A stretch of 64,000 nt of DNA from positions 15,671 to 79,670 of the forward strand of contig CAZHWT010000001.1 in the NCBI GenBank assembly GCA_964536215.1, given 5' to 3'. A model generated the notes under the pieces. That model made no database searches, was not told the origin of the DNA, and saw nothing but the letters and a program-made list of their open reading frames with translations. The position numbers and the translations under genes are program-made. Source of the DNA: an uncultured Candidatus Saccharibacteria bacterium (GTDB lineage: Bacteria > Patescibacteriota > CAZHWT01). Positions 1,660 to 55,083 of this stretch are shown piece after piece (position 1 is the stretch's first letter; every line of letters starts with the position of its first letter).

Positions 1660-4347
1660 CTAACGGGCAGGAAGAGCCTGGATGCGGGGAGCGAGACTGA
1701 TTGGCCAGCTAGTGGGCGCTGGTAGGGCACTCATTGGTTGAGGATTGGCTCCGACACTGCCTTCGCCGCCAAAGTTAATAGTGATAGAAGCGGAGCCTTC
1801 ATTGCCGTTGGAATCAATGGCCTTTACACCCACCGTATGACTACCGCTCGTGCTCTTGGGTAAATTATACGTGTACTCATAGGGTATGGAGGTTGTAGAG
1901 CTGACCGGCACGTCATCTAGCAAGAACGTAACTTTGGTAATGACGCCGGCTGAAGCAACGTTTGCTTTAACGGTAAACTTGGTACCAACCCGCTGCCCGT
2001 TGGTAGGAGAGGTAATAGTAACGGTTGGGACATCGCCGGCCGTGTGGTACAAGGTTGACGTTTCGGTTGGACATCCCCATGGTGCGCCTTGTTTCTGCAT
2101 CCATTCGTTAGTGTACGATTGCCAGGCAGCTACTGGCTCTTCCAGTTGGGTGCAGACGACTGTTTGAGCATTGCCAGTGGCAATTGTGGCAGAGTTGGCT
2201 AGCTTGCCATTATCCTTATCTATCTGAACCTGTTTAGAGAAGGTGTCGACTTGGGTTGGCTCGGTGCCAGCGACAAAGATTTCTTTCTTGGTCTTAGAGT
2301 AGGGGCCAGGTAGCATGCCAGATATAGCGTCAATTGTTACCTCGGTAATGCCTGATGGCCGCTTAAATTGCTCAACCGGAGTCCCATCCAGAGCTCGCTT
2401 CATAAAGCCGTTCCAGATTGGCGTAGCTCCGGTGGAACCTTGAATACCGTTCATAGGCGTACGGTCAAAGTTTCCTACCCATACAGCTGTGGACAGCGAA
2501 GGCGTGTAGCCAATCGTCCAGGCGTCCCAGTTTTCGTCGGTGGTACCAGTTTTGACGGCAGCTGGACGGCCGATTTCCAGCTTGTTATGGGCGCCAAATA
2601 AGCGTTGACGGGCAGCATTATCCGATAAAATATTCGACAGCAAGTAAACATATTTAGAGTCCACAACCTTCTTGCCTTCGCCGGGCTTGTATTCGTCGAG
2701 TACTTTGCCTGACGGATCTTCTACCTTAAGAATAGCAGTTAACGGTTGCTGCACCCCTTGATTGGCAAAGGTGGAGTACACTTGGGCCATGTCAAACGGA
2801 GTGGCTTCGGCTGAACCTAGGGCTAAAGACAACCCGTACGTTTTAGGATCGTTCATTGAAGTGATGCCTAGCTTGTGAGCCAGGTCCAACATGTTATCTA
2901 TACCTACCATGCCCAACATCTTAACGGCCGGAATGTTGCGGGAGTTAGACAGAGCAACTCTGGGTTGCAATGGTCCCCAGAAGTTGTTGGTGGAGTTGCC
3001 CGGACAATACGGTGGTTCGCCGCCAAAACAAGTGGGCACATCGCCCAGATAAGTACCCAAAGTATACCCTTTGGTAAAAGCGGTCAGGTAGGTAATTGGT
3101 TTGATTGATGAGCCGGGTTGACGCGGACGCTGAATGACGTCTACCTGCCCCTGGTGTTCAGTATCGTTAAAATCTTCGGAACCGACGTAGGCTAAAATTT
3201 CGCCAGTTTTGGGGTCAGAGGCGATGAGGCCGGCATTGCTGGCATTAGCCTTAGCTTTAGCCAGATTGGCGATCTGCTTTTTTACTTCTTCCTCGGCGAT
3301 GACCTGTTTATCATAGTCTAACGTGGTGGTAATTTTAAGGCCGCCTTGCTCGACCGTCTTGGTGCCGTACTGAGCCTCGAGTAGCTGGCGGACATACATA
3401 ACAAAGTGCGGCGCCTTTATATTGTTGGTTCGACCATTAACAAAGGCTAACTCCTGCTTCTCAGCTTCTTCTTTTTGTTTAGCCGTAATTTTGCCTTTAT
3501 CTTCCATCTGGTCAAGCACATAGTGCTGGCGACCGTAGGCCGCATCGGGATTAGTGAATGGATTGTAGCGAGTCGGGGACTGCAACATACCAGCCAGCAG
3601 GGCCGCTTCCGGCAGCTTTAACTCTTTGGCCGTCTTTCCAAAGTAATGATGAGCTGCAGCCTCGATGCCATAGGCGGTGCCACCGTAGGGCATTTCGTTG
3701 AGATAGATTTGCAGAATGTCGTCTTTAGAGTACTTGCGCTCAATCTGGATGGCCAGGATAAGTTCTTTTATTTTACGAATGGGCGTCTGCCGAGCGTCTT
3801 CCAAAATAACGTTCTTAACTAGCTGTTGAGTAATCGTCGAACCGCCACCTTCAATAGAGCGGCTGGTAATATCTTTAAACAGGGCCATTAGGATGCCTTT
3901 AACGTCAAAGCCTTGGTGCTGGTAAAAGCTAGCATCCTCTGCGGCAATGGTAGCGTCTTTGACCTCTTTGGGAATATCTTCCAACTTAAGCAGCGTCCGG
4001 TCATGTTCGCCGTCGTAAATATCGTAGAGTAATTTGCCATTACGATCATAAATTTTGGTCGACTGAGCTACTTCGCGCTGCGTCAGTTTGTCTGGCGAAG
4101 GCAGATCTCGAGAAAAATAGGCAAAGACACCAATAACGCCAATGGTCATAGTAATGGCCATTATTAGGGCGACTGTGGCTGTAATTGTGAGAAAGCGGGC
4201 TCGGCGAGTTCGCTGGCGAGACTTAACGGCAGCCGAGCGACGACGCACCGCACCAGTAGTAGACAGGGTACTTAATCGGCGGCGGCGTTTTGGCATAAGA
4301 GAAGTGATAAAAGAGGGGAGAGTCATGCGATAAAGTGAAACAGACAA
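1660..4347 (-). CDS. Class A penicillin-binding protein (bifunctional transglycosylase/transpeptidase, PBP1A-like) with C-terminal Ig-like domain
   Basis: N-terminal basic region plus a TM helix. GT51 motifs (EDASFYQHQG, GGSTITQQLVKN). Transpeptidase SxxK/KTGT region (AVKTGTTDE). C-terminal repeat/Ig-like segment. 895 aa. Confidence 0.85.
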   Translation of the reverse strand: MSVSLYRMTLPSFITSLMPKRRRRLSTLSTTGAVRRRSAAVKSRQRTRRARFLTITATVALIMAITMTIGVIGVFAYFSRDLPSPDKLTQREVAQSTKIYDRNGKLLYDIYDGEHDRTLLKLEDIPKEVKDATIAAEDASFYQHQGFDVKGILMALFKDITSRSIEGGGSTITQQLVKNVILEDARQTPIRKIKELILAIQIERKYSKDDILQIYLNEMPYGGTAYGIEAAAHHYFGKTAKELKLPEAALLAGMLQSPTRYNPFTNPDAAYGRQHYVLDQMEDKGKITAKQKEEAEKQELAFVNGRTNNIKAPHFVMYVRQLLEAQYGTKTVEQGGLKITTTLDYDKQVIAEEEVKKQIANLAKAKANASNAGLIASDPKTGEILAYVGSEDFNDTEHQGQVDVIQRPRQPGSSIKPITYLTAFTKGYTLGTYLGDVPTCFGGEPPYCPGNSTNNFWGPLQPRVALSNSRNIPAVKMLGMVGIDNMLDLAHKLGITSMNDPKTYGLSLALGSAEATPFDMAQVYSTFANQGVQQPLTAILKVEDPSGKVLDEYKPGEGKKVVDSKYVYLLSNILSDNAARQRLFGAHNKLEIGRPAAVKTGTTDENWDAWTIGYTPSLSTAVWVGNFDRTPMNGIQGSTGATPIWNGFMKRALDGTPVEQFKRPSGITEVTIDAISGMLPGPYSKTKKEIFVAGTEPTQVDTFSKQVQIDKDNGKLANSATIATGNAQTVVCTQLEEPVAAWQSYTNEWMQKQGAPWGCPTETSTLYHTAGDVPTVTITSPTNGQRVGTKFTVKANVASAGVITKVTFLLDDVPVSSTTSIPYEYTYNLPKSTSGSHTVGVKAIDSNGNEGSASITINFGGEGSVGANPQPMSALPAPTSWPISLAPRIQALPAR

Positions 4348-4443
4348 TATTATATCATAGTGGTGGGATTATCTGTGATATAATAGAGGAAATTGAATGG
4401 CGAGTACAAAGCTGGACAGCTTTCAAAATGCGGAAATAGAAAT

Positions 4444-4542
4444 TTGAAATACGAAACAAATCCGAAGAGCAAATATCAAAGCAGCACTAATTTTTCTGGT
4501 ATCTGATTTTAAGTTTGTTTCGCATCTCATATTTCGACATTT
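4444..4542. repeat. ~100 nt imperfect palindromic AT-rich element (GAAATACGAAACAA ... TTGTTTCGCATTTC arms) upstream of tyrS
   Basis: Inverted arms ~60 nt apart. A near-identical element is found downstream of tyrS at 5859..5951. Confidence 0.5.
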
Positions 4543-4569
4543 CGTTTTTCGCTTTACCCTCTCCGCTTT

Positions 4570-5799
4570 GTGCTCAGGTTCTATACTATGCCAAATACCA
4601 ATCACCACCAATTAATAACTCGGGCCATTGATACGATTTTACCTACCCCGGCCGCTTTTGAGCAATTGCTGGATAAAGCGGAAGCCGAAGGTCGCCAACT
4701 GCGCGGGTATTACGGGATTGATCCGACATCACCTCATTTACACATTGGCCATACTGTCGGCATGAATGCTTTAGCGCGCTTTCAACAGGCCGGACATAAG
4801 GCTATTTTGCTGATTGGTGATTTTACCGGTAGATTAGGGGATCCGGACAAGCTATCCATCCGCCAGCCATTAACCAAGGAACAGGTTGAGGCTAACATGG
4901 CTACCTACCTAGAGCAGGTTGGAACTATTTTGGATTTTGACGGCGATAACCCAGTGGAGGTGCGTTACAACTCGGAGTGGAGCGACACCATGCGCTTTGA
5001 GGAGATTGTAAAGCTGGCGGCACACTTTACGGTTCAGCAGATGTTAGAGCGGGATATGTTTCAGCGGCGAATTGAGGAGCAGCGGCCAATTTCACTGTCC
5101 GAATTCTTTTATCCGTTAATGCAAGGGTATGACGCAGTGGCTTTAGAGGCCGACGTACAATTTGGGGGTACTGATCAGATTTTTAATATGCTGGCTGGCC
5201 GGACACTTAATCGTGTTTTGGCCGATCGGGAGATGATGGTAGTAGCCGTACCACTGCTAGCGGATGGTAATGGGGTTAAAATTGGCAAAACCATGGGTAA
5301 CGCTATTAATATTGATAATCCGCCTAATGAACTGTACGGCCAGATGATGAGCTTGCCGGACGAAGTAATTGTGCCGGGCCTGACATTACTAACCGAGGCA
5401 CCTGAAGATGAGATCGCTCAAACAGCTACCAGATTAAAGGCTGGCGATAATCCCATGGCGGCCAAAAAGCGGCTGGCCTGGCTGATTATTGAGAAGTATC
5501 ATGGCCAGTCATCGGCGGATAGCGCTCAGTCTCATTTTGAGCATACTGTTCAGGGCGGATCTGCTCCTGAACAAATTGAGGACCGAGTTTTGGATCGGGC
5601 TGATTGGGATATTGTTGATCTACTGGTAGAGCTTGGACTGACTGATAGCAAAGCCCAAGCCCGGCGGTTGTTTGAGCAGGGTGGCATTGAAGTGGACGAG
5701 CAACGCCTAACCGAGCGGCAAGTGCATATTGATGATAAAATTCTGTTGAAGGTAGGGAAGAGGACTTATCTGAATGTGCACGTGTCTAGGGAAGCGTAA
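4570..5799 (+). CDS. tyrS: Tyrosyl-tRNA synthetase. The ORF begins at GTG 4570; ATG 4588 (MPNTN...) is an alternative start.
   Basis: Class I HIGH motif (PHLHIGHTV). KMSKS-like KIGKTMGN. C-terminal S4 RNA-binding domain. Confidence 0.85.
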   Translation: MLRFYTMPNTNHHQLITRAIDTILPTPAAFEQLLDKAEAEGRQLRGYYGIDPTSPHLHIGHTVGMNALARFQQAGHKAILLIGDFTGRLGDPDKLSIRQPLTKEQVEANMATYLEQVGTILDFDGDNPVEVRYNSEWSDTMRFEEIVKLAAHFTVQQMLERDMFQRRIEEQRPISLSEFFYPLMQGYDAVALEADVQFGGTDQIFNMLAGRTLNRVLADREMMVVAVPLLADGNGVKIGKTMGNAINIDNPPNELYGQMMSLPDEVIVPGLTLLTEAPEDEIAQTATRLKAGDNPMAAKKRLAWLIIEKYHGQSSADSAQSHFEHTVQGGSAPEQIEDRVLDRADWDIVDLLVELGLTDSKAQARRLFEQGGIEVDEQRLTERQVHIDDKILLKVGKRTYLNVHVSREA

Positions 5800-5858
5800 A
5801 ACTTAGAGCTGAGAGCGTAAAGCCACAATGCAAAGTAACTAAAATAAGAATTTAGAAA

Positions 5859-5951
5859 ATCGAAATACGAATCAACCTCGAAATCAGAATATTTAAATGA
5901 AAATGTCACATTATACTGTTCGTTTTTCTCATTTGTTTCGTATTTCAATTT
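5859..5951. repeat. Second copy of the GAAATACGAA-CAA / TTGTTTCGTATTTC palindromic element, downstream of tyrS
   Basis: Arms cgaaatacgaatcaacctcgaaatcag and ctgttcgtttttctcatttgtttcgtatttc are reverse complements of each other and match the 4444..4542 element. Confidence 0.5.
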
Positions 5952-6035
5952 TCTAGATGCTATATTTGCCAACTTTTAGCTTTGGATTTGCGCTATACAT
6001 ATTTGCGCTTTTAACTTGCTTGAAAGGATCTTTTT

Positions 6036-6155
6036 ATGCCATCGTCTACACCAAAACATCATCGGGTAATATTCTCAATCGTCCTAGTTATTTCTATTTT
6101 GGCGATTGTTCTCTTTTCATTGTCCCCACTATTTATGGCTCAGAACTATCAATAG
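6036..6155 (+). CDS. Candidate 39-aa small hydrophobic peptide (MPSSTPKHHRVIFSIVLVISILAIVLFSLSPLFMAQNYQ). Basic N-terminus plus a single TM helix, resembling a type I toxin or small membrane protein.
   Basis: ATG preceded by gaaaggatc (SD-like) 8 nt upstream. Uninterrupted 39-codon frame. Below the 60-aa cutoff of the ORF track. Confidence 0.2.
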   Translation: MPSSTPKHHRVIFSIVLVISILAIVLFSLSPLFMAQNYQ

Positions 6156-6292
6156 GTGGTAGCTAGGGGGTGGCAAGAAAACCTCGCTCCTCGTACCCTC
6201 GTGAATGAGTTTGACGCAGGTCAGAACGTCTTTTATACTATGTATATGTCTCTAGTTCGACAGACAGCTTTTTGGTTTTACTTTAACCGGAT

Positions 6293-6376
6293 TCAGTTCG
6301 CGGAGGTAAGAGTGTAGCCTATAAGAAAAGTTAGCAATAAACGGTTTTAACTCTCCCTCCCGGGGGAGTTTTTTAT
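6293..6376 (+). ncRNA. sRNA-like / attenuator-like element E1: conserved 5' motif CGGAGGTAAGAGTGTAGCCTA, AT-rich spacer, GC hairpin (ctccctcccgggggag) plus T-run terminator
   Basis: Paralogous to the element at 7376..7464 (same 5' motif, same spacing, terminator with tccc loop). Sits upstream of the small-ORF cassette. Confidence 0.3.
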
Positions 6377-6656
6377 TGCTACGAACAATGGGGCATCCGC
6401 TTATCCGACATTCCTAACATGCCATTTTCTATGATCACTAGGCACCCCAGGATACCCCGGTATGAGTTAGGAATTATGAATTACGAATTACGAGTTACGA
6501 GGAACGAATAAACGGACGAGTAGGCAAAATTAAAATTGGAATAAGAGCCAAAAACAAAAAACTACTTTTGAGAGGCGGATAGGATGTTGCCCCGTTGAGA
6601 GGCGGGCAACCTCTGTCCAAGGAAGGTTGAGAGAGGAAAGGAAGGGGGAGAGGCGT

Positions 6657-6938
6657 ATGTCATACGCTGAGCTGGCAGAAGTTGGCCTATTATTAGTGGC
6701 AGCAAGCTGGCTAGGCTGGACTTACTGTCGCTGGGAGCCGGGTTGGAGGTGGCATGAGGCGCTGGCCATAGTGATCATAGAGATGCTTCTGGCTCACCGC
6801 ATGGCCCAGTCGCATTCCTGGTCAGACTATCTTACTCGGCTATTCTGGCTAAATACCACACTTTTGTTGGTGTGGCTAACACTCCGCTTGGGCCATCGCA
6901 GTGGTGCACTAGAAGGGGAAGACAATGGGGTTGATTAA
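6657..6938 (+). CDS. Hypothetical small membrane protein (2-3 TM; MSYAELAEVGLLLVAASWLGW...)
   Basis: ATG 6657 is preceded by a purine-rich SD (aggaagggggagagg). Local GC is higher than in surrounding DNA. Stop overlaps the start of the next ORF (ATGGGGTTGATTAA). Confidence 0.35.
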   Translation: MSYAELAEVGLLLVAASWLGWTYCRWEPGWRWHEALAIVIIEMLLAHRMAQSHSWSDYLTRLFWLNTTLLLVWLTLRLGHRSGALEGEDNGVD

Positions 6939-7161
6939 CCAAATAACGTCTAAGGGACGCGAAGCTGAGGTGTTACCGCGACGACCAAGTGACCCAGCTA
7001 ACGTTCAGGCGCTTTGGCGACCAGGGCAGCTTCGCTATCGGGCTATCTGCCCAGATTGCGGACTGACTCAAGCGTCGCCTTCACTCAGATCGTCCGATGC
7101 TGAGGATTGGCTTCAGGCTCACCGTATACAGTGCGGCAGTCTCAGTCCAGCCTGCGACTGA
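6925..7161 (+). CDS. Hypothetical Cys-rich small protein (CPDCG ... HRIQCGSLSPAC), possible zinc ribbon
   Basis: Translationally coupled to the upstream ORF. Four cysteines in a CxxC...C...C arrangement. Confidence 0.3.
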   Translation: MGLINQITSKGREAEVLPRRPSDPANVQALWRPGQLRYRAICPDCGLTQASPSLRSSDAEDWLQAHRIQCGSLSPACD

Positions 7162-7375
7162 GCTATGCCTTATGGCGGAACAGTTTCTGTTCCGCCAACT
7201 TTTATAAAAAAGGATAATGAAGCATAAACATCCCAACCTTACGCCTGCTACCTGGCTACCTTGCAATCTTGCAACCTAAAGTCATTTGACATCTCTCGCT
7301 CAGAGGCGGATAATACGTGCCATGCACCAGCCAGGCATACAAACGATTACCACCATTAAGATTAAGATGACCGGA

Positions 7376-7464
7376 ACGAAAGTTTACGGAGGTAAGAGTT
7401 TAGCCTAGCCATTTTTTAAATTTAGAAATCGACTAAAAGCTCTTCCTCCCGGAAGAGCTTTTTT
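7376..7464 (+). ncRNA. sRNA-like / attenuator-like element E2 (paralog of E1): ACGGAGGTAAGAGTTTAGCCTA ... gctcttcctcccggaagagc plus T6
   Basis: Same conserved motif and the same architecture as 6293..6376. 8-bp stem with tccc loop followed by tttttt. Confidence 0.3.
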
Positions 7465-7602
7465 AATTTGCAGTATGTTGAGGAGGTAGAAATGGGAAGG
7501 TAAGCATAAAGGTAAAAGCGGTTTCAGCTGATGCGCTTTAAGATCTTAGAGCGCATCATTGGCACCGTGGGCACCGAAAGAGACATTCAAAAGGAGACGG
7601 AG

Positions 7603-7914
7603 ATGGCTAGTATTACTGGCCAATCAATTCAAACGTCGCTGCTAGTAGTCAGGACGCAAGCCATGCATCGGATCATTTGCCATTGCCGAGAGAGAGGGCC
7701 GAGAGATGGCCGGCTGAGACCAACTCTGTGTCAGATGCAGCATCGAGACTTGGCTGAAGTCTGCCTTATGCTGCAACAACACTGGCAGGAGAATCATCCC
7801 GAACTGATGATTGAGCCGGTCATGTTTCATAGCATGAGCCGGGCCAAGTTGCTGACATGGCTGAGAGGGTCTGGCTATGACGTCCAGCAGTACCCAGTAG
7901 AGGAGAGAGTCTAG
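7603..7914 (+). CDS. Hypothetical protein (ORF track 7531..7914; probable start at ATG 7603 after aaggagacggag)
   Basis: Good SD before ATG 7603. Followed immediately by a strong hairpin terminator. Confidence 0.35.
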   Translation: MASITGQSIQTSLLVVRTQAMHRIICHCRERGPRDGRLRPTLCQMQHRDLAEVCLMLQQHWQENHPELMIEPVMFHSMSRAKLLTWLRGSGYDVQQYPVEERV

Positions 7915-7915
7915 T

Positions 7916-7943
7916 TGGGGCAAAAACAACGCTGTTTTTGCCC
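7916..7943. terminator. Hairpin ggggcaaaaacaacgctgtttttgcccc (12-bp stem)
   Basis: Perfect inverted repeat directly after the stop codon at 7914. Confidence 0.55.
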
Positions 7944-7974
7944 CTTTCCCTTGACTGGAATGCTACGAATGGGT

Positions 7975-8052
7975 TTTTAGTTTGTGGTTTATAGTTTATA
8001 GTTATACGAATGATACGAATTGCCATAACCCATTAACGATAAACGATAAACG
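7975..8052. repeat. AT-rich short tandem repeats (ggtttttagtttgtggtttatagtttatag ... acgataaacgataaacgaat)
   Basis: Member of the dispersed GGTTTATGG/TAGTTTAT and CGATAAA 7-mer repeat family. Also seen at 32385-32500, 44976-45010, 45575-45620, 47535-47565 and 54634-54720. Confidence 0.6.
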
Positions 8053-8058
8053 AATTAT

Positions 8059-10140
8059 ATGTCTCCAGATACGTCCGTTGCTACTTTGCCATTTGTTGGC
8101 ACTAAATATGAACAGCTTTTAGCCCACTTGGGCATTAAAACAGTGCGCGATTTGCTGTATCACTTGCCGTCACGATATGTGGACTTATCCAAAATGACAC
8201 CAATTGAAGATTTGGTGGAGGGTGAGTTGCAGGTGGTTAAGGCCAAGGTGGAGTCGATTAAAAAGGTTCGACTTAAGGGAGGTGGGCGAGTGATGATTAC
8301 GGCAACGGCTTCGGATGATACTGATCAATTGCAGTTAACTTGGTTTAATCAGCCGTATATGGAAAAGTCGCTCACAGTGGGCCAGGACTACCGCTTTGCT
8401 GGCGAGCCAGAGTTTAAGTTTGGCAAGTTTCAGATGACCAGCCCTACCCATGAACTGGCCAGCAAACCCATGGTCCATACAGGTAGAATTGTGCCTATTT
8501 ACCCACTAACAGCCGGAGTGACATCAAAATGGTTGAGGGCGCGAATTGCTCCGTTATTACCCAAAGTCGAAGTGGTCGTGCCGGAATTTTTACCAGACGC
8601 TATTCTGTCCAAGTATGATTTAGCCTCATTGCCTGAAGCTATTAGACACCTACACGCGCCAGAGACCATGGAGCAGGCTGGCATAGCCAGACGACGACTG
8701 GCATTTAATGAACTGCTTTTATTGCAACTGGCTTCCTTGCAGCGAAAAATGGCCCAGGGTCAGAGTGCCGCAGCGCCAGCACTGAGAGTGGGGAGAAAGG
8801 AGATAAGAGAGTGGGTTATGGGTTTGCCCTTTGACTTAACTGAGGCTCAGCAAAAAGTCATTGATGAAATTACAACTGATTTAGCAAAGAGTCAACCAAT
8901 GAATCGCCTGGTTGAGGGTGATGTTGGTTCGGGTAAAACAGTGGTGGCTGCGGCCGCGGCTTTGGCGGCGGCGTTTAATGGTTACCAGACGGCCGTAATG
9001 GCACCAACATCGGTGTTGGCGCAGCAACACTATCAAACGTTTCAAGCATTACTTGAGGGTGCAAGGGTGCGAGCGGGCGAGGCGGCGAGGAGAGCATCCC
9101 AGACATTGGATGAAGAGACTAAACCTGAGGGCCGAGAGTTGAGACCCGTTAGCGTTGCTTTGCGGACGGCCAAATCCAAGATGCCGCCAGCGGATATTAC
9201 CATTGGTACACACGCCTTGATTGCCAGTGGGGTAGAGTTTGAGGCTTTGGGACTGGTGATTATTGATGAGCAGCACCGATTTGGTGTAGCACAGCGAGCC
9301 GAATTAATGAGCAAGGCTGGGCACGGAGTCCATTTGTTGTCTATGACTGCCACACCAATCCCGCGGACCCTGGCTTTGACAGCTTATGGCGACTTGGATT
9401 TATCGATTATTGATCAGATGCCAGCCAACAGACTGCCTATCAAAACACACGTTGTGCCAGAGCATAAACGAGCCGATATGGAAGACTACCTTGATGCGGC
9501 TATGGCCAGAGGAGAGCAGGTCTTTATTGTCTGTCCGCTTATTGACGAGTCTGACAAGGTTACAGAAGTGCGAGCAGCTACGGCTGAGTTTGAGCGGCTC
9601 CAGCAAGTGTTTGGTCAACGGCGCTTAGCTTTATTGCACGGCCGGATGAAAGCAGCCGACAAAGACCAAATTTTGGCCGAGTTTAAGAATCATCAGTTTG
9701 ACGCTTTGGTGGCTACGCCAGTGGTAGAAGTAGGCATTGACGTACCTAACGCTACAATGCTGGTTATTGAAGGGGCAGAGCGATTTGGTTTGGCTCAGCT
9801 ACACCAGTTACGCGGTCGGGTTGGGCGTGGCGATAAACAATCGTATTGTTTTTTGTTGAGCGACGCTAAAAAGGCTAAGGACATTGCTAGATTGCGCCAT
9901 ATGGAGCATGAGTCAAGCGGCATTGCTCTGGCCGAGCTAGACTTGGCTACGCGCGGTCCCGGTGAAGTCTATGGGCACCGCCAGAGCGGTATTCCAGAGT
10001 TAAAAGCAGCCTCGTTTATGGATGTTGAGCTCACCCAAACTACGCATGAGGCTGCCGAAGGTCTTATTGCTAGCTTGAATAGTTATCCCAACTTAGAGCG
10101 GGAACTGAGTCGCACACAAAAGTTGGTTGAAATGAATTAG
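8059..10140 (+). CDS. recG: ATP-dependent DNA helicase RecG
   Basis: N-terminal wedge/OB region. Helicase motif I (GDVGSGKT), DEQH box (IIDEQHRFG). C-terminal helicase domain. 693 aa. Confidence 0.85.
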   Translation: MSPDTSVATLPFVGTKYEQLLAHLGIKTVRDLLYHLPSRYVDLSKMTPIEDLVEGELQVVKAKVESIKKVRLKGGGRVMITATASDDTDQLQLTWFNQPYMEKSLTVGQDYRFAGEPEFKFGKFQMTSPTHELASKPMVHTGRIVPIYPLTAGVTSKWLRARIAPLLPKVEVVVPEFLPDAILSKYDLASLPEAIRHLHAPETMEQAGIARRRLAFNELLLLQLASLQRKMAQGQSAAAPALRVGRKEIREWVMGLPFDLTEAQQKVIDEITTDLAKSQPMNRLVEGDVGSGKTVVAAAAALAAAFNGYQTAVMAPTSVLAQQHYQTFQALLEGARVRAGEAARRASQTLDEETKPEGRELRPVSVALRTAKSKMPPADITIGTHALIASGVEFEALGLVIIDEQHRFGVAQRAELMSKAGHGVHLLSMTATPIPRTLALTAYGDLDLSIIDQMPANRLPIKTHVVPEHKRADMEDYLDAAMARGEQVFIVCPLIDESDKVTEVRAATAEFERLQQVFGQRRLALLHGRMKAADKDQILAEFKNHQFDALVATPVVEVGIDVPNATMLVIEGAERFGLAQLHQLRGRVGRGDKQSYCFLLSDAKKAKDIARLRHMEHESSGIALAELDLATRGPGEVYGHRQSGIPELKAASFMDVELTQTTHEAAEGLIASLNSYPNLERELSRTQKLVEMN

Positions 10141-23102: not shown

Positions 23103-23971
23103 AGCAATAGCTGTTGATACCAGGTTGCAATTATGGGCGTTAACCAGAGCGAAAGCAGTGTGCCGACGACCAAAAAGGGGCCAAAGGGGATTGTCTGGCC
23201 GAATGTTTTTTGCTTGGCTGCTAACAGAAGCAATGATAGCACGGCGCCCAAAATAAAGGCAAGATAAATAGCTACAATAATAGCCGGATATCCCAGAAAG
23301 AGGCCCATTAAAAGTGCTAACTTGACATCTCCCAGCCCCATGCCTGGTTTGTGGAGGATTTTTTCCGACCCCCAGACGATGATTAGGAAGAATAGCGCGG
23401 CGGATAGTCCGCTGACCAAAGTAGGCGAGTAGGTGAGTAGGTGAGTAGGTGAGTCCAGGCTGGCTAAGGGTTGCCATGTAAGGGGTTGTTGTAAGATTGC
23501 GGCTAGTATCGCCATGACTAAAGTTAAAGCTGCACCACCTAGGGTCCAGATATCAGGCAAATAGCCCCAGCGAAGGTCGTAGACGAACAGAGCGATGAGT
23601 AACGCAGTCATAACCCAAACGAATACTAGTGTGGCGATTTGCCAAGCGTCTAGCGTGTAGCGTGTAGCGTCTAGTCCATACATATACACAAAGCTAGTCA
23701 CAAAACTAAAGGCAGTTGTTAGCTCGATAGCTATATATTGAGGTGAGATTTTTTTATGACAATACCGGCAGCGGCCGCCTAAGAGAAGGTAGGAAATAAC
23801 CGGAATAAGGTCGAGAGGAGAGAGGGTATGCTGACAATGAGGGCAGACAGAGTGTTTCTCTAGCATGGAGCGGTCATTATAGACTCGCCAAATCCAAGCA
23901 GTTAAGAAACTACCAATCATAGCTCCAAGAATAGCAACAAAAATTATGGTAGCGATGAGGATAAGAAGCAT
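23099..23971 (-). CDS. pilD: Prepilin peptidase (A24 family) PilD, with in-frame tandem-repeat insertions
   Basis: N-terminal CxxC...CxxC zinc-binding domain (CPHCQH...CRYCHKK). Eight TM helices. Repeats GTAGGTGA x4 (23421-23460) and TAGCGTG x3 (23641-23670) are read in frame. Confidence 0.8.
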   Translation of the reverse strand: MLLILIATIIFVAILGAMIGSFLTAWIWRVYNDRSMLEKHSVCPHCQHTLSPLDLIPVISYLLLGGRCRYCHKKISPQYIAIELTTAFSFVTSFVYMYGLDATRYTLDAWQIATLVFVWVMTALLIALFVYDLRWGYLPDIWTLGGAALTLVMAILAAILQQPLTWQPLASLDSPTHLLTYSPTLVSGLSAALFFLIIVWGSEKILHKPGMGLGDVKLALLMGLFLGYPAIIVAIYLAFILGAVLSLLLLAAKQKTFGQTIPFGPFLVVGTLLSLWLTPIIATWYQQLLL

Positions 23972-32368: not shown

Positions 32369-32384
32369 TACGAATGATGATTGG

Positions 32385-32500
32385 TTTATGGTTTTTAGTT
32401 TATAGTTTTTAGTTGCTACGAATAGCCGAAATTACCAATAGCTAATGACCATAAACCATAAACTACGAACTGTAAACCGCAAACCATAACCTAAAAACTA
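32385..32500. repeat. Long imperfect inverted repeat built from GGTTTATGG/TAGTTTAT units between gyrB and gyrA
   Basis: Left arm ggtttatggtttttagtttatag. Right arm aaaccataaactacgaactgtaaaccgcaaaccataacc. Confidence 0.55.
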
Positions 32501-45532: not shown

Positions 45533-45615
45533 CTAAAAAGGACGTATCCGTGCTAGCATCGTCTCAAATCTGCCAACTATAAACTACGAACCATAAACCA
45601 TAAACTCATTCGTAT

Positions 45616-54633: not shown

Positions 54634-54720
54634 TTGTTAAACGTTAAACGTTAAACGTTAAACGTTAATCGTTTATGATTAGCGATTAGCGATTAGCGAT
54701 TAGCGATTAGCGATTAGCGA
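54634..54720. repeat. Two adjacent heptamer microsatellites: (TAAACGT)x4-5 then (GATTAGC)x6
   Basis: Perfect tandem copies in an intergenic region. Confidence 0.7.
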
Positions 54721-54904
54721 TTAAGGGGATTTTAGCACGAGGTGGTATTTGTTTATTTTGCGTCTTGTGACTTGGTTTGGCATTTGGATTCTTGTGCCTT
54801 GGCATTTACCGGTGAGTTTGAATATTTCATAGTCGCCTGATTCCATTCCTTTAGCCCGATTATACGTATATGTATATGTATACGTATACCTTAGGATACA
54901 AAAA

Positions 54905-54930
54905 TACCGCCTAATTTGGGGCGGTACTTT
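54905..54930. terminator. Hairpin taccgcc taatttgg ggcggta flanked by A-run/T-run. Bidirectional terminator.
   Basis: 7-bp GC-rich stem with aaaa upstream and tttt downstream. Confidence 0.45.
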
Positions 54931-55083
54931 TGCATCCTGAATAAATTCAGGATAGAAAGGAGAGAGACATGGTTATTATAGTATATGCCGCACGGTTTGT
55001 CAAGCTTTGTGGTAAGTGATGGGTGATGAGTAGCAAATAGGGAAAAAACACTACCTCCTCTCCCCTGTTCCGCTACTCAGTAG

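Follow-up and report, generated by a model that had tools for sequence, protein, structure and literature searches.

Between tyrS and recG, in the 64,000-nucleotide (nt) stretch of DNA analyzed here (the window; an uncultured Candidatus Saccharibacteria bacterium, contig CAZHWT010000001.1), two related short elements, which we call E1 and E2, each lie ahead of small open reading frames (ORFs). What do these elements do? A sequence-only reading of the same DNA had described each of them as a unit of about 85 nt, acting either as a ribosome-sensing transcription attenuator or as a small regulatory RNA. We propose that E1 and E2 are paralogous copies of what is probably a ribosome-mediated (leader-peptide) transcription attenuator, whose leader ORF would be translated from a leaderless mRNA.

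Both elements carry the 21-nt motif CGGAGGTAAGAGTNTAGCCTA on the + strand (6301-6321 and 7387-7407), and these two copies compare with 0 expected in the window from dinucleotide shuffles. The similarity between E1 and E2 reaches 27 nt (24/27 matching), and the elements are direct repeats spaced by 1086 nt. Downstream of each motif, an AT-rich spacer leads into an intrinsic-terminator hairpin (6349-6370 and 7435-7462). A TCCC loop and a T-run are common to the two hairpins, whose stems differ by a compensatory exchange of C-G for U-A. The earlier proposal of a duplicated motif-terminator pair is thus borne out, and the search for additional motif copies which it had recommended, carried out over the 64-kb window with up to three mismatches allowed, returned only the two known ones. 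Upstream of each motif, we observe a promoter-like site and a short ORF that had been overlooked. The parts of the two units, all on the + strand, are as follows, with region numbers referring to the attenuator layout that we propose below.

6211-6239, + strand: E1 promoter, TTGACG-17-TATACT, one of the top two sigma-70-like sites in 4300-8200.
6246-6317, + strand: E1 leader ORF of 23 codons, MSLVRQTAFWFYFNRIQFAEVRV followed by a stop, with the A of its ATG 7 nt past the -10 box.
6287-6303, + strand: apical hairpin CCGGA-UUCAGU-UC(G)CGG within the E1 leader ORF, from the RNAalifold consensus of five units.
6301-6321, + strand: E1 motif, "region 2," which takes in the final leader codons and their TAG stop (6315-6317).
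6302-6313, + strand: GGAGGUAAGAGU within the E1 motif, with two alternative predicted partners, the codons that precede it (1:2) and the 5' arm of the terminator (2:3, antiterminator).
6349-6376, + strand: E1 intrinsic terminator, "regions 3:4," with its stem at 6349-6370, a TCCC loop, and then a T-run.
7286-7314, + strand: E2 promoter, TTGACA-17-GATAAT (11/12), whose spacer holds a copy of CAGAGGCGG at 7297-7309.
7322-7408, + strand: E2 leader ORF of 28 codons, MHQPGIQTITTIKIKMTGTKVYGGKSLA followed by a stop, with the A of its ATG 8 nt past the -10 box.
7371-7389, + strand: E2 apical hairpin.
7387-7407, + strand: E2 motif.
7435-7468, + strand: E2 intrinsic terminator with a 12-base-pair (bp) stem, a TCCC loop, and a T-run.

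With promoter and short ORF included, the whole units occupy approximately 6211-6376 (E1) and 7286-7468 (E2), which gives a size of about 165 to 185 nt in place of the 85 nt first assigned to them. The two top + strand sigma-70-like sites of the interval 4300-8200 directly precede E1 and E2, and among 24 strong promoter-like sites in the 64 kb only these two are followed by an ATG at +7/+8 after the -10 box.

By its RecG protein, the organism falls among Patescibacteria of the Microgenomates type. The gene order PBP1 (- strand), tyrS, a gene for a membrane peptide of 36 to 39 amino acids (aa), a variable interval, and recG is conserved in relatives, the nearest of which have RecG proteins 59 to 67% identical to that of the window, while the window's own strain was found again unchanged in several Logan assemblies. 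This variable interval is empty in relatives L034, L037, and L039; unrelated genes occupy it in L038 and, in part, in L033. Homologous units were recovered from this locus in L035 (7307-7490; RecG identity, 62%), L033 (7331-7499; RecG identity, 67%), and L041 (1099-1280), with nhmmer E values from 5e-20 to 1e-35 and covariance-model scores of 112 to 149 bits, and in each of these three the unit is present as a single copy leading an operon. In addition, the contigs of L040 and L045 open inside the terminator of another unit, of which a terminator-only remnant is left. The absence of conservation in related genomes, named in the sequence-only reading as grounds for discarding its proposal, is thus not what we observe, as three or more distant relatives carry homologous units between tyrS and recG.

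The family of units is a narrow one. Neither nhmmer nor covariance model R1 detected additional copies in the 64-kb window or in 11 loci. The matches of a GGAGGTAAGAGTNTAGCC scan (11 in species-representative genomes and 13 in JGI metagenomes) were rejected as chance, since they fall in unrelated coding or GC-rich sequence and lack a terminator, and a weak nhmmer match in L009 (E = 2e-4) likewise proved to be an unrelated GC-rich contig. A AACCGGATTNAGTTCNCGGAGG scan of viral contigs gave 0 matches, and blastn of 6200-7950 against phages and plasmids gave none.

Leader ORFs of 23 to 28 codons are present in 5/5 full units (E1, E2, and those of L033, L035, and L041), and in all five the ORF follows a promoter of the form TTGAC(A/G/T)-16/17-(T/G)ATA(A/C)T, which reads TATAAT in three units and TTGACA in three. 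The A of the ATG lies 7 to 9 nt after the -10 box, a distance from which a leaderless leader mRNA, starting at the A of the AUG, is predicted. Two other strong promoter-like sites on the - strand of the window, at 23905 and 21169, have an ATG 10 nt after the -10 box and head ORFs of 255 and 310 aa, which may represent further leaderless or near-leaderless mRNAs.

Four of the leaders (E1, L033, L035, and L041; 23 to 25 codons) share a common frame, C terminus, and stop position. The ORF is kept as coding sequence in four units, with the peptides FWFYFNRIQFAEVRV, FYFYFNRIKFTEARV, FYYWFNRIQFAEARV, and LYYWFNRIQFAEARV, each followed by a stop, and the full leader peptides of the relatives are MQLTKSFSFYFYFNRIKFTEARV (L033), MLHNVSTTFSFYYWFNRIQFAEARV (L035), and MLHNIGTTSSLYYWFNRIQFAEARV (L041), again each followed by a stop. 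The consensus of the four is ...F-Y-[FY]-[YW]-F-N-R-I-[QK]-F-[AT]-E-[AV]-R-V-stop. Their length difference of 6 nt is in frame, their N-terminal halves have diverged freely without gaining stops, and they vary in the last Val codon (GTG/GTT/GTA), in the Ala/Val codon (GTA/GCA/GCC), and in the stop itself (TAG/TAA). The leader ORF is thus a real one, and comparison shows that not only its frame and stop are conserved but also the promoter, the motif, the terminator, and the position upstream of the module. Across the four leaders, the codons for F, N, R, I, F, E, and R are without any third-position variation, which points to an RNA-level constraint in addition to coding.

This also changes the interpretation of the motif. 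Its GGAGG had been read as a Shine-Dalgarno (SD) sequence followed by a GTG-TAG or GTT-TAG start-stop mini-frame, an assignment that we reject because GGAGG sits in codons 19 to 21 of the conserved leader ORF. GTT is no start codon, and the triplet in question is the final Val codon of the longer ORF. Given the conserved frame, the Val variants, and the alternative stops, what resembled an SD with a start-stop frame is the end of the leader ORF (Glu-Val/Ala-Arg-Val-stop).

E2 differs from the other four. Here, 2 extra nt separate ACCGGA from CGGAGG in comparison with E1, so that the reading frame differs and the ORF ends at TAG 7406-7408, 5 nt past the position of the E1-type stop; the stop codon is found within the motif in E1 and at the motif end in E2. 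In the four similar leaders, runs of four to five consecutive Phe/Tyr/Trp codons end 20 nt upstream of GGAGG (in E1, F-W-F-Y-F at 6270-6284), whereas E2 has a Thr/Ile/Lys-rich codon run instead (7337-7366).

How these parts could work together is suggested by the predicted folds. All five pairs of the apical hairpin are kept in 5/5 units, with one G-C to G-U change, and in E2 the stem is longer with a GAAA loop; this hairpin may act as an RNA polymerase pause hairpin. In the minimum free energy (MFE) folds of 5/5 leaders, the motif pairs with upstream codons in a long imperfect hairpin that is capped by the apical hairpin and followed by the terminator. Whole-transcript z-scores lie between -3.4 and -4.9 for 4/5 units. 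The terminator stems are of 9 to 12 bp with a T-run in all units and show compensatory changes. The conservation of the terminator 5' arm and loop (CUCUYCC.UCC) exceeds the needs of a plain terminator, which fits an arm obliged to pair with two partners.

The second of these partners appears to be the motif. Among all 18-nt windows of the upstream transcript, the motif is the top partner of the terminator 5' arm in 5/5 units, with duplex energies of -14.5 to -18.7 kcal/mol that were equalled by 0 to 5 of 300 shuffles. For folding of the antiterminator, the terminator 3' arm was deleted and the upstream part blocked as a stand-in for a stalled ribosome, with boundaries that were mis-set for L041 (no fold obtained) and for E1 (part of the 3' arm retained; still -18). 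In the resulting fold, GGAGG..AGAG pairs with CUCU..CCUCC of the terminator 5' arm and loop, at -12.8 to -18.6 kcal/mol in the four units without L041, compared with -14 to -16.7 for the terminator hairpins alone. Three mutually exclusive pairings, 1:2, 2:3, and 3:4, are thus predicted, in the layout of a classical attenuator.

We therefore postulate the following course of events, each step of which is a prediction. The near-consensus and presumably constitutive promoter would yield a leaderless mRNA beginning with the A of the AUG, and the leader of 23 codons (E1) or 28 codons (E2) would be translated during transcription. The GGAGG..AGAG stretch, or region 2, could pair with the upstream codons (1:2) or with the CUCU..CCUCC of the terminator (2:3). 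A ribosome at the stop codon would mask region 2, the 3:4 terminator would form, and the transcript would end at about 130 to 145 nt. An earlier stall would leave region 2 free to sequester the terminator 5' arm, with read-through as the outcome. The spacing of the unit is compatible with both states, since the aromatic run ends 20 nt before GGAGG, from where a stalled ribosome would leave the motif free, and the stop lies 13 to 18 nt past the start of GGAGG, from where a terminating ribosome would cover it. The stall sites would be the Phe/Tyr/Trp codon run in E1-type leaders and possibly the Thr/Ile/Lys run in E2, and read-through would lead from E1 into ORFs A and B and from E2 into ORF C. 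That stalling at aromatic codons is the signal, and read-through the route by which the downstream genes are expressed, is what we infer from this arrangement.

The genes and untranslated regions (UTRs) which would be subject to this control are listed below.

6379-6560, + strand: about 180 extra nt between the E1 terminator and the 5'-UTR element, with TACGAAT-type AT-rich repeats; absent in relatives.
6566-6618, + strand: conserved 5'-UTR element with two GAGAGGCGG repeats (6566-6578 and 6593-6605), a hairpin, and a tail.
6657-6938, + strand: ORF A, for a small membrane protein of 93 aa; its ribosome-binding site is long and purine rich.
6925-7161, + strand: ORF B, 78-aa small Cys/His protein, overlapping ORF A by 14 nt.
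7173-7197, + strand: terminator of the E1-ORF A-ORF B unit.
7529-7558, + strand: palindrome in the 5'-UTR of the E2-ORF C unit, with 15-nt arms that are 93% complementary.
7603-7914, + strand: ORF C, 103-aa orphan, with SD AAGGAG; an alternative start at 7531 has no SD.
7917-7944, + strand: terminator of the E2-ORF C unit, upstream of recG (8059).

The small ORFs that had been noted after each element are thus present as described, including the overlap of the first two. The same interval had also been described as a high-GC cassette bracketed by the two elements and free of conserved genes, and none of these attributes survived. The terminators at 7173-7197 and 7917-7944 close two separate units, E1 with ORFs A and B and E2 with ORF C, so that the elements head two operons and bracket nothing. 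The G+C content of 6036-7920 is 0.484, against 0.479 for the window, and is raised in the ORF bodies only (0.552 for ORFs A and B and 0.529 for ORF C, against 0.491 for tyrS and 0.500 for recG). Finally, the ORF A and ORF B families, like the membrane peptide gene, are kept in relatives, which leaves ORF C as the sole orphan.

The distance from terminator to first ORF is 281 nt for E1, compared with about 80 to 100 nt in the relatives; the extra stretch at 6379-6560 was not found repeated elsewhere in the 64-kb window. In L033 and L041, no + strand promoter-like site lies between the terminator and the first ORF, and the sole promoter-like site of that interval in L035 overlaps the start codon of the ORF. 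With no usable promoter detected there in the three relatives scanned, downstream expression appears to require read-through of the terminator.

A second conserved RNA structure fills this interval between terminator and first ORF. The 5'-UTR element consists of a hairpin, GUUGCCC...GGGCAAC at 6586-6610, and the tail CUCUGUCC at 6611-6618, and it has homologues in L033 (7510-7562), L040 (36-86), L035 (7496-7531), L041 (1285-1320), and L045 (58-97). In its general form, a GUUGNNN/NNNCAAC stem closes a loop that includes GAGAG, and YUCUGYCC follows as the tail. All six sequences pair throughout the 7 bp of the stem (100%), with positions 5 and 6 changing on both sides (CG/GC/UA), and its covariation score was reached by 0/500 shuffles. 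A second copy of the GAGAGGCGG repeat stands ahead of the hairpin in three genomes. Possibly, this element masks the ribosome-binding site or binds a protein. On the E2 side, just past the terminator (7482-7504), we observe a strong SD, GAGGAGG, with a three-codon mini-ORF, ATG GGA AGG TAA; neither this mini-ORF nor the 30-nt palindrome is seen in the relatives, because E2 and ORF C are strain specific.

The encoded proteins are small and obscure. No match was obtained for them in Pfam, PHROG, or PADLOC, and P0127 has a sub-threshold score to Pfam DUF7848 (E = 0.02). ORF A shows weak similarity (24%) to small membrane proteins of the L040 and L045 modules. The ORF B family, with the pattern Y-x-x-x-C-x(1,2)-C-G ... 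H-x3-C, is very rare, with 7 HMMER matches among 1.84 billion representative proteins, mostly from this locus. An AlphaFold2 model of ORF B built on a seven-sequence alignment is of low confidence (pLDDT, 59), and Foldseek against the PDB returned no fold match (best E = 0.59). The Cys/His motif of ORF B (C-x-C-G...P-G-S-R...H-x3-C) is found twice in P0129, a compositionally different protein of 228 aa from elsewhere, which suggests an independent mini-domain. ORF C has no homologue other than itself among 5.8 billion proteins. Its placement in the ORF B family was rejected as circular, ORF C having been part of the query profile, and once it was left out hhalign gave E = 0.15.

Several observations weigh against an attenuator that responds to its leader codons. 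The E2 peptide is unrelated to the E1 type and contains one aromatic residue, and E2 is known from one strain, where it could be a decaying copy. Pairing with the purine-rich motif demands U-rich codons, so that the aromatic richness of the other leaders may in part be a by-product of RNA structure. The bases of the proposed 2:3 pairing are invariant and hence offer no compensatory change to prove it, the register of the 1:2 hairpin differs between lineages, and the z-score of the E1 fold is only -1.3. When 5' and 3' halves were swapped between units, the native combination was the most stable in just 3/5. Nothing detected so far connects the regulated genes with aromatic amino acids or with a known function, and leaderless translation in Patescibacteria is not documented in the literature searched. 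Finally, all mechanistic steps are predicted ones.

Part of this evidence could also be accommodated if a factor other than the ribosome operated the switch. A ligand or an RNA-binding protein, such as the downstream Cys/His protein acting in feedback, could stabilize the 1:2 hairpin or the 2:3 antiterminator, with the short ORF incidental or secondary. The same alternative pairings would serve, and the near-total invariance at synonymous sites of the N-R-I-x-F-x-E-x-R codons in the four leaders, the apical hairpin kept even in E2 despite its other reading frame, and the GAGGCGG repeats in the 5'-UTR and in the E2 promoter spacer, which could be protein-binding sites, all agree with such a factor. 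We nevertheless regard this as unlikely, since an ATG at the predicted start in 5/5 units, an in-frame indel, the TAG/TAA at a fixed position, and third-position variation of the Val codon are hard to account for without translation. E2 has moreover acquired a new stop within 5 nt of the old one after its change of frame, and no Rfam riboswitch or leader family matches. Alternatively, the nascent peptide itself could be what matters, if FNRIQFAE(A/V)RV stalled the ribosome in response to a small molecule and the stalled ribosome then decided between terminator and antiterminator, in the manner of leaders of the nascent-peptide arrest type, TnaC and SpeFL. The last 11 residues are indeed almost invariant in the four leaders, next to a variable N terminus. 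However, conservation is equal at synonymous sites, as RNA constraints predict, E2 retains the RNA elements in another frame, so that the peptide is not what is kept, and a ribosome halted at the stop or close to it would mask the antiterminator strand, which favors termination only; arrest of this kind thus appears very improbable.

A further alternative dispenses with the switch altogether and takes each unit as a free-standing, constitutively terminated gene, encoding a micropeptide of 23 to 28 aa and/or a trans-acting small RNA (sRNA) of about 130 to 145 nt, with the downstream ORFs using promoters missed by a consensus scan. Every unit is complete from promoter to strong terminator, the peptides are conserved toward their C termini, the sigma-70 consensus may not describe all promoters of this phylum, and trans functions are known for attenuator RNAs and leader peptides, for example, rnTrpL and peTrpL of Sinorhizobium meliloti (PMC6614838, PMC7298713). 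Yet the unit is always found immediately ahead of this one small-protein module and in the orientation of the module, at the short distance seen in the relatives, and the interval between them lacks a detected usable promoter in the three relatives scanned. The motif, the best antiterminator partner in 5/5 units, would be superfluous for a plain terminator, and the unrelated E2 peptide means that peptide sequence is not what the paralogues share. A free-standing gene is therefore doubtful, and the sRNA version of it in particular conflicts with the conserved ORF and with the fixed position ahead of one operon. Of the two functions first considered for these elements, then, the attenuator is the one that we favor, on grounds other than the SD and start-stop frame originally invoked, and the free-standing sRNA is the less likely because of the conserved ORF, the downstream genes 80 to 100 nt away, and the absence of a detected usable promoter between them in the three relatives scanned. 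A type I toxin-antitoxin system is likewise disfavored, since the leader peptides, with charged ends and only about seven consecutive hydrophobic or aromatic residues, contain no membrane-spanning segment, and since no promoter-like site on the minus strand of the E1/E2 region emerged from the promoter scan. As direct repeats 1086 nt apart in an interval that varies among relatives, E1 and E2 could be taken for att-like ends of an inserted mobile cassette. Here, the single operon-heading copy in relatives is effectively a refutation; the repeats have also diverged, with compensatory terminator changes and a promoter and ORF of their own, Pfam and PHROGs detect no family in the four small ORFs and hence no integrase or transposase domain, and similarity to phages, plasmids, or viral contigs is absent. 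We give this origin next to no credence.

Within the leader-peptide attenuator reading, there is a small chance that the two copies represent one RNA switch whose amino acid specificity was re-programmed by a 2-nt frameshift, so that it would be read as an aromatic leader in E1 and as a Thr/Ile/Lys leader in E2. The apical hairpin, the motif, and the terminator may have been retained in the process, with a new stop 5 nt from the old one. If true, a biosynthesis-poor, host-dependent cell would be using the sensing of charged tRNA, and membrane and Cys/His micro-proteins would be switched on when host-supplied amino acids run short.

A possible extra layer to such a scheme would be a CU-rich trans sRNA (54970-54899, - strand) that masks the ribosome-binding site of ORF A. 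This candidate sRNA occupies window positions 54899-55003 on the - strand, where a perfect consensus promoter, TTGACA-17-TATAAT (55003-54975), precedes a 72-nt transcript whose 5' tail (AUGUCUCUCUCCUUUCUA) is CU rich and single stranded; a hairpin of 9 bp and a terminator of 13 bp follow. The MFE of the transcript is -28.4 kcal/mol (z = -8.4), and no Rfam family matches it. Over both strands of the window, its own antisense aside, the top duplex of the tail is with 6640-6656 (-27.4 kcal/mol), a stretch that begins with the SD of ORF A and ends at -1 relative to its start; the runner-up has -22.3, and the background has a mean of -5.2 with a standard deviation of 3.2. The candidate may repress ORF A in trans, yet CU-rich seeds pair well with any purine-rich ribosome-binding site. 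Downstream of it, at 54680-54730 on the - strand, lie about seven tandem CGCTAAT units.

The surroundings of the two operons differ in their conservation. Adjacent to tyrS, the following gene is shared among relatives.

6036-6155, + strand: gene for a 39-aa single-pass membrane peptide, aligned in eight related genomes.

The possible transmembrane peptide of the sequence-only reading proves to be a real gene, since it directly follows tyrS in 8/8 related genomes examined, with the peptide consensus MAS.PKHHRVIF.IVLVLSILSIILFALAPLFTAQ.YQ (36 to 39 aa) and the invariant residues M1, H9, R10, I21, L26, F27, P31, and L32. It is also present in relatives without the module and is a conserved core gene outside the regulated module. 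The interval between the peptide gene and recG, on the other hand, is a hot spot, with small-gene inserts that differ between genomes. AT-rich, partly palindromic repeats flank tyrS (4425-4541 and 5841-5958); within them, 4437-4461 recurs in inverted orientation at 5931-5955 (96% over 25 nt), and direct copies (D1 and D4) are seen as well. Intergenic stretches rich in TACGAAT are found at 6474-6500 and at 7960-8050, the latter being similar to 45575-45614 and 32384-32407.

Set against described systems, the units match none by sequence. No family reached its Rfam gathering score in the window, and a permissive-threshold search of the window and its relatives returned only sub-threshold matches to terminator-containing leaders. 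The best match in the window, Phe_leader (RF01859), scored 33 and 20.5 bits where the cut-off is 55, and it aligns mainly to the terminator and the preceding short hairpin. The statement that no described RNA family is recognizable is thereby upheld, with a best covariance score of 33 bits against a gathering score of 55. Nor did the literature searched contain any account of attenuation by leader peptides, or of leaderless regulation, in Patescibacteria.

Similarities of layout can nonetheless be drawn with several bacteria. In Corynebacterium glutamicum, leaders of trpE, leuA, ilvB, and aroF are described, with a three-hairpin model for ilvBNC (PMC3890552, PMC11857589). As predicted for our units, small leader peptides stand upstream of operons there, with terminator, antiterminator, and anti-antiterminator hairpins and an aromatic-type leader (aroF); in contrast, there is no sequence relationship, and those leaders control amino acid biosynthesis, whereas no link between leader and cargo is detectable here. 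Mycobacteria possess leaderless polycysteine short ORFs (the "Cys ribulon"), in which a pause in the codon run remodels the RNA and switches the operon on (10.1101/834739). The leaderless short ORF as first cistron is predicted for our units too, but the mycobacterial switch unmasks a ribosome-binding site, and hence acts on translation, and uses Cys codons, whereas a transcription terminator and aromatic or Thr/Ile/Lys codons are predicted here. In the trpL attenuator of S. meliloti, the terminated product is an abundant sRNA, rnTrpL, encoding peTrpL (PMC6614838, PMC7298713), which shows that a terminated leader could also act in trans; by analogy, such a role may be considered for E1 and E2.

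The family is of interest for several reasons. Patescibacteria (the candidate phyla radiation) are largely uncultivated, and their genomes are small, with few regulators known; a family that extends across 62 to 67% RecG identity gives a testable handle on how they sense translation or amino acid supply. The cargo proteins occur in only a handful of sequence clusters among billions, and the attenuator provides a handle on their purpose. Moreover, what looks like GGAGG with a start-stop frame can turn out to be the last part of a leaderless ORF that escaped annotation, a point to bear in mind when small ORFs are annotated in metagenome-assembled genomes.

Leader-peptide attenuation is textbook biology, and the closest likeness is to the attenuators of Proteobacteria, namely, trpL, pheL of pheA, pheM of pheST, and thrL. 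Like these, our units have a short ORF with what may be a regulatory cluster of codons for one amino acid class, and they share with the trpL/pheL/thrL class a stop just before or in region 2, an intrinsic terminator, and, by prediction, mutually exclusive 1:2, 2:3, and 3:4 hairpins and a constitutive promoter. Unlike them, they belong to no known family by sequence or covariance model, are predicted to be leaderless where the Proteobacteria leaders are SD led, reside in a Patescibacteria-type host, and precede tiny uncharacterized proteins in place of biosynthetic enzymes or an aminoacyl-tRNA synthetase. The pheL and pheM leaders are rich in aromatic residues, and the thrL leader is rich in Thr and Ile; accordingly, the E1-type leaders resemble pheL and pheM, and E2 resembles thrL. 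Most likely, then, this is a previously undescribed family of attenuators with a classical mechanism.

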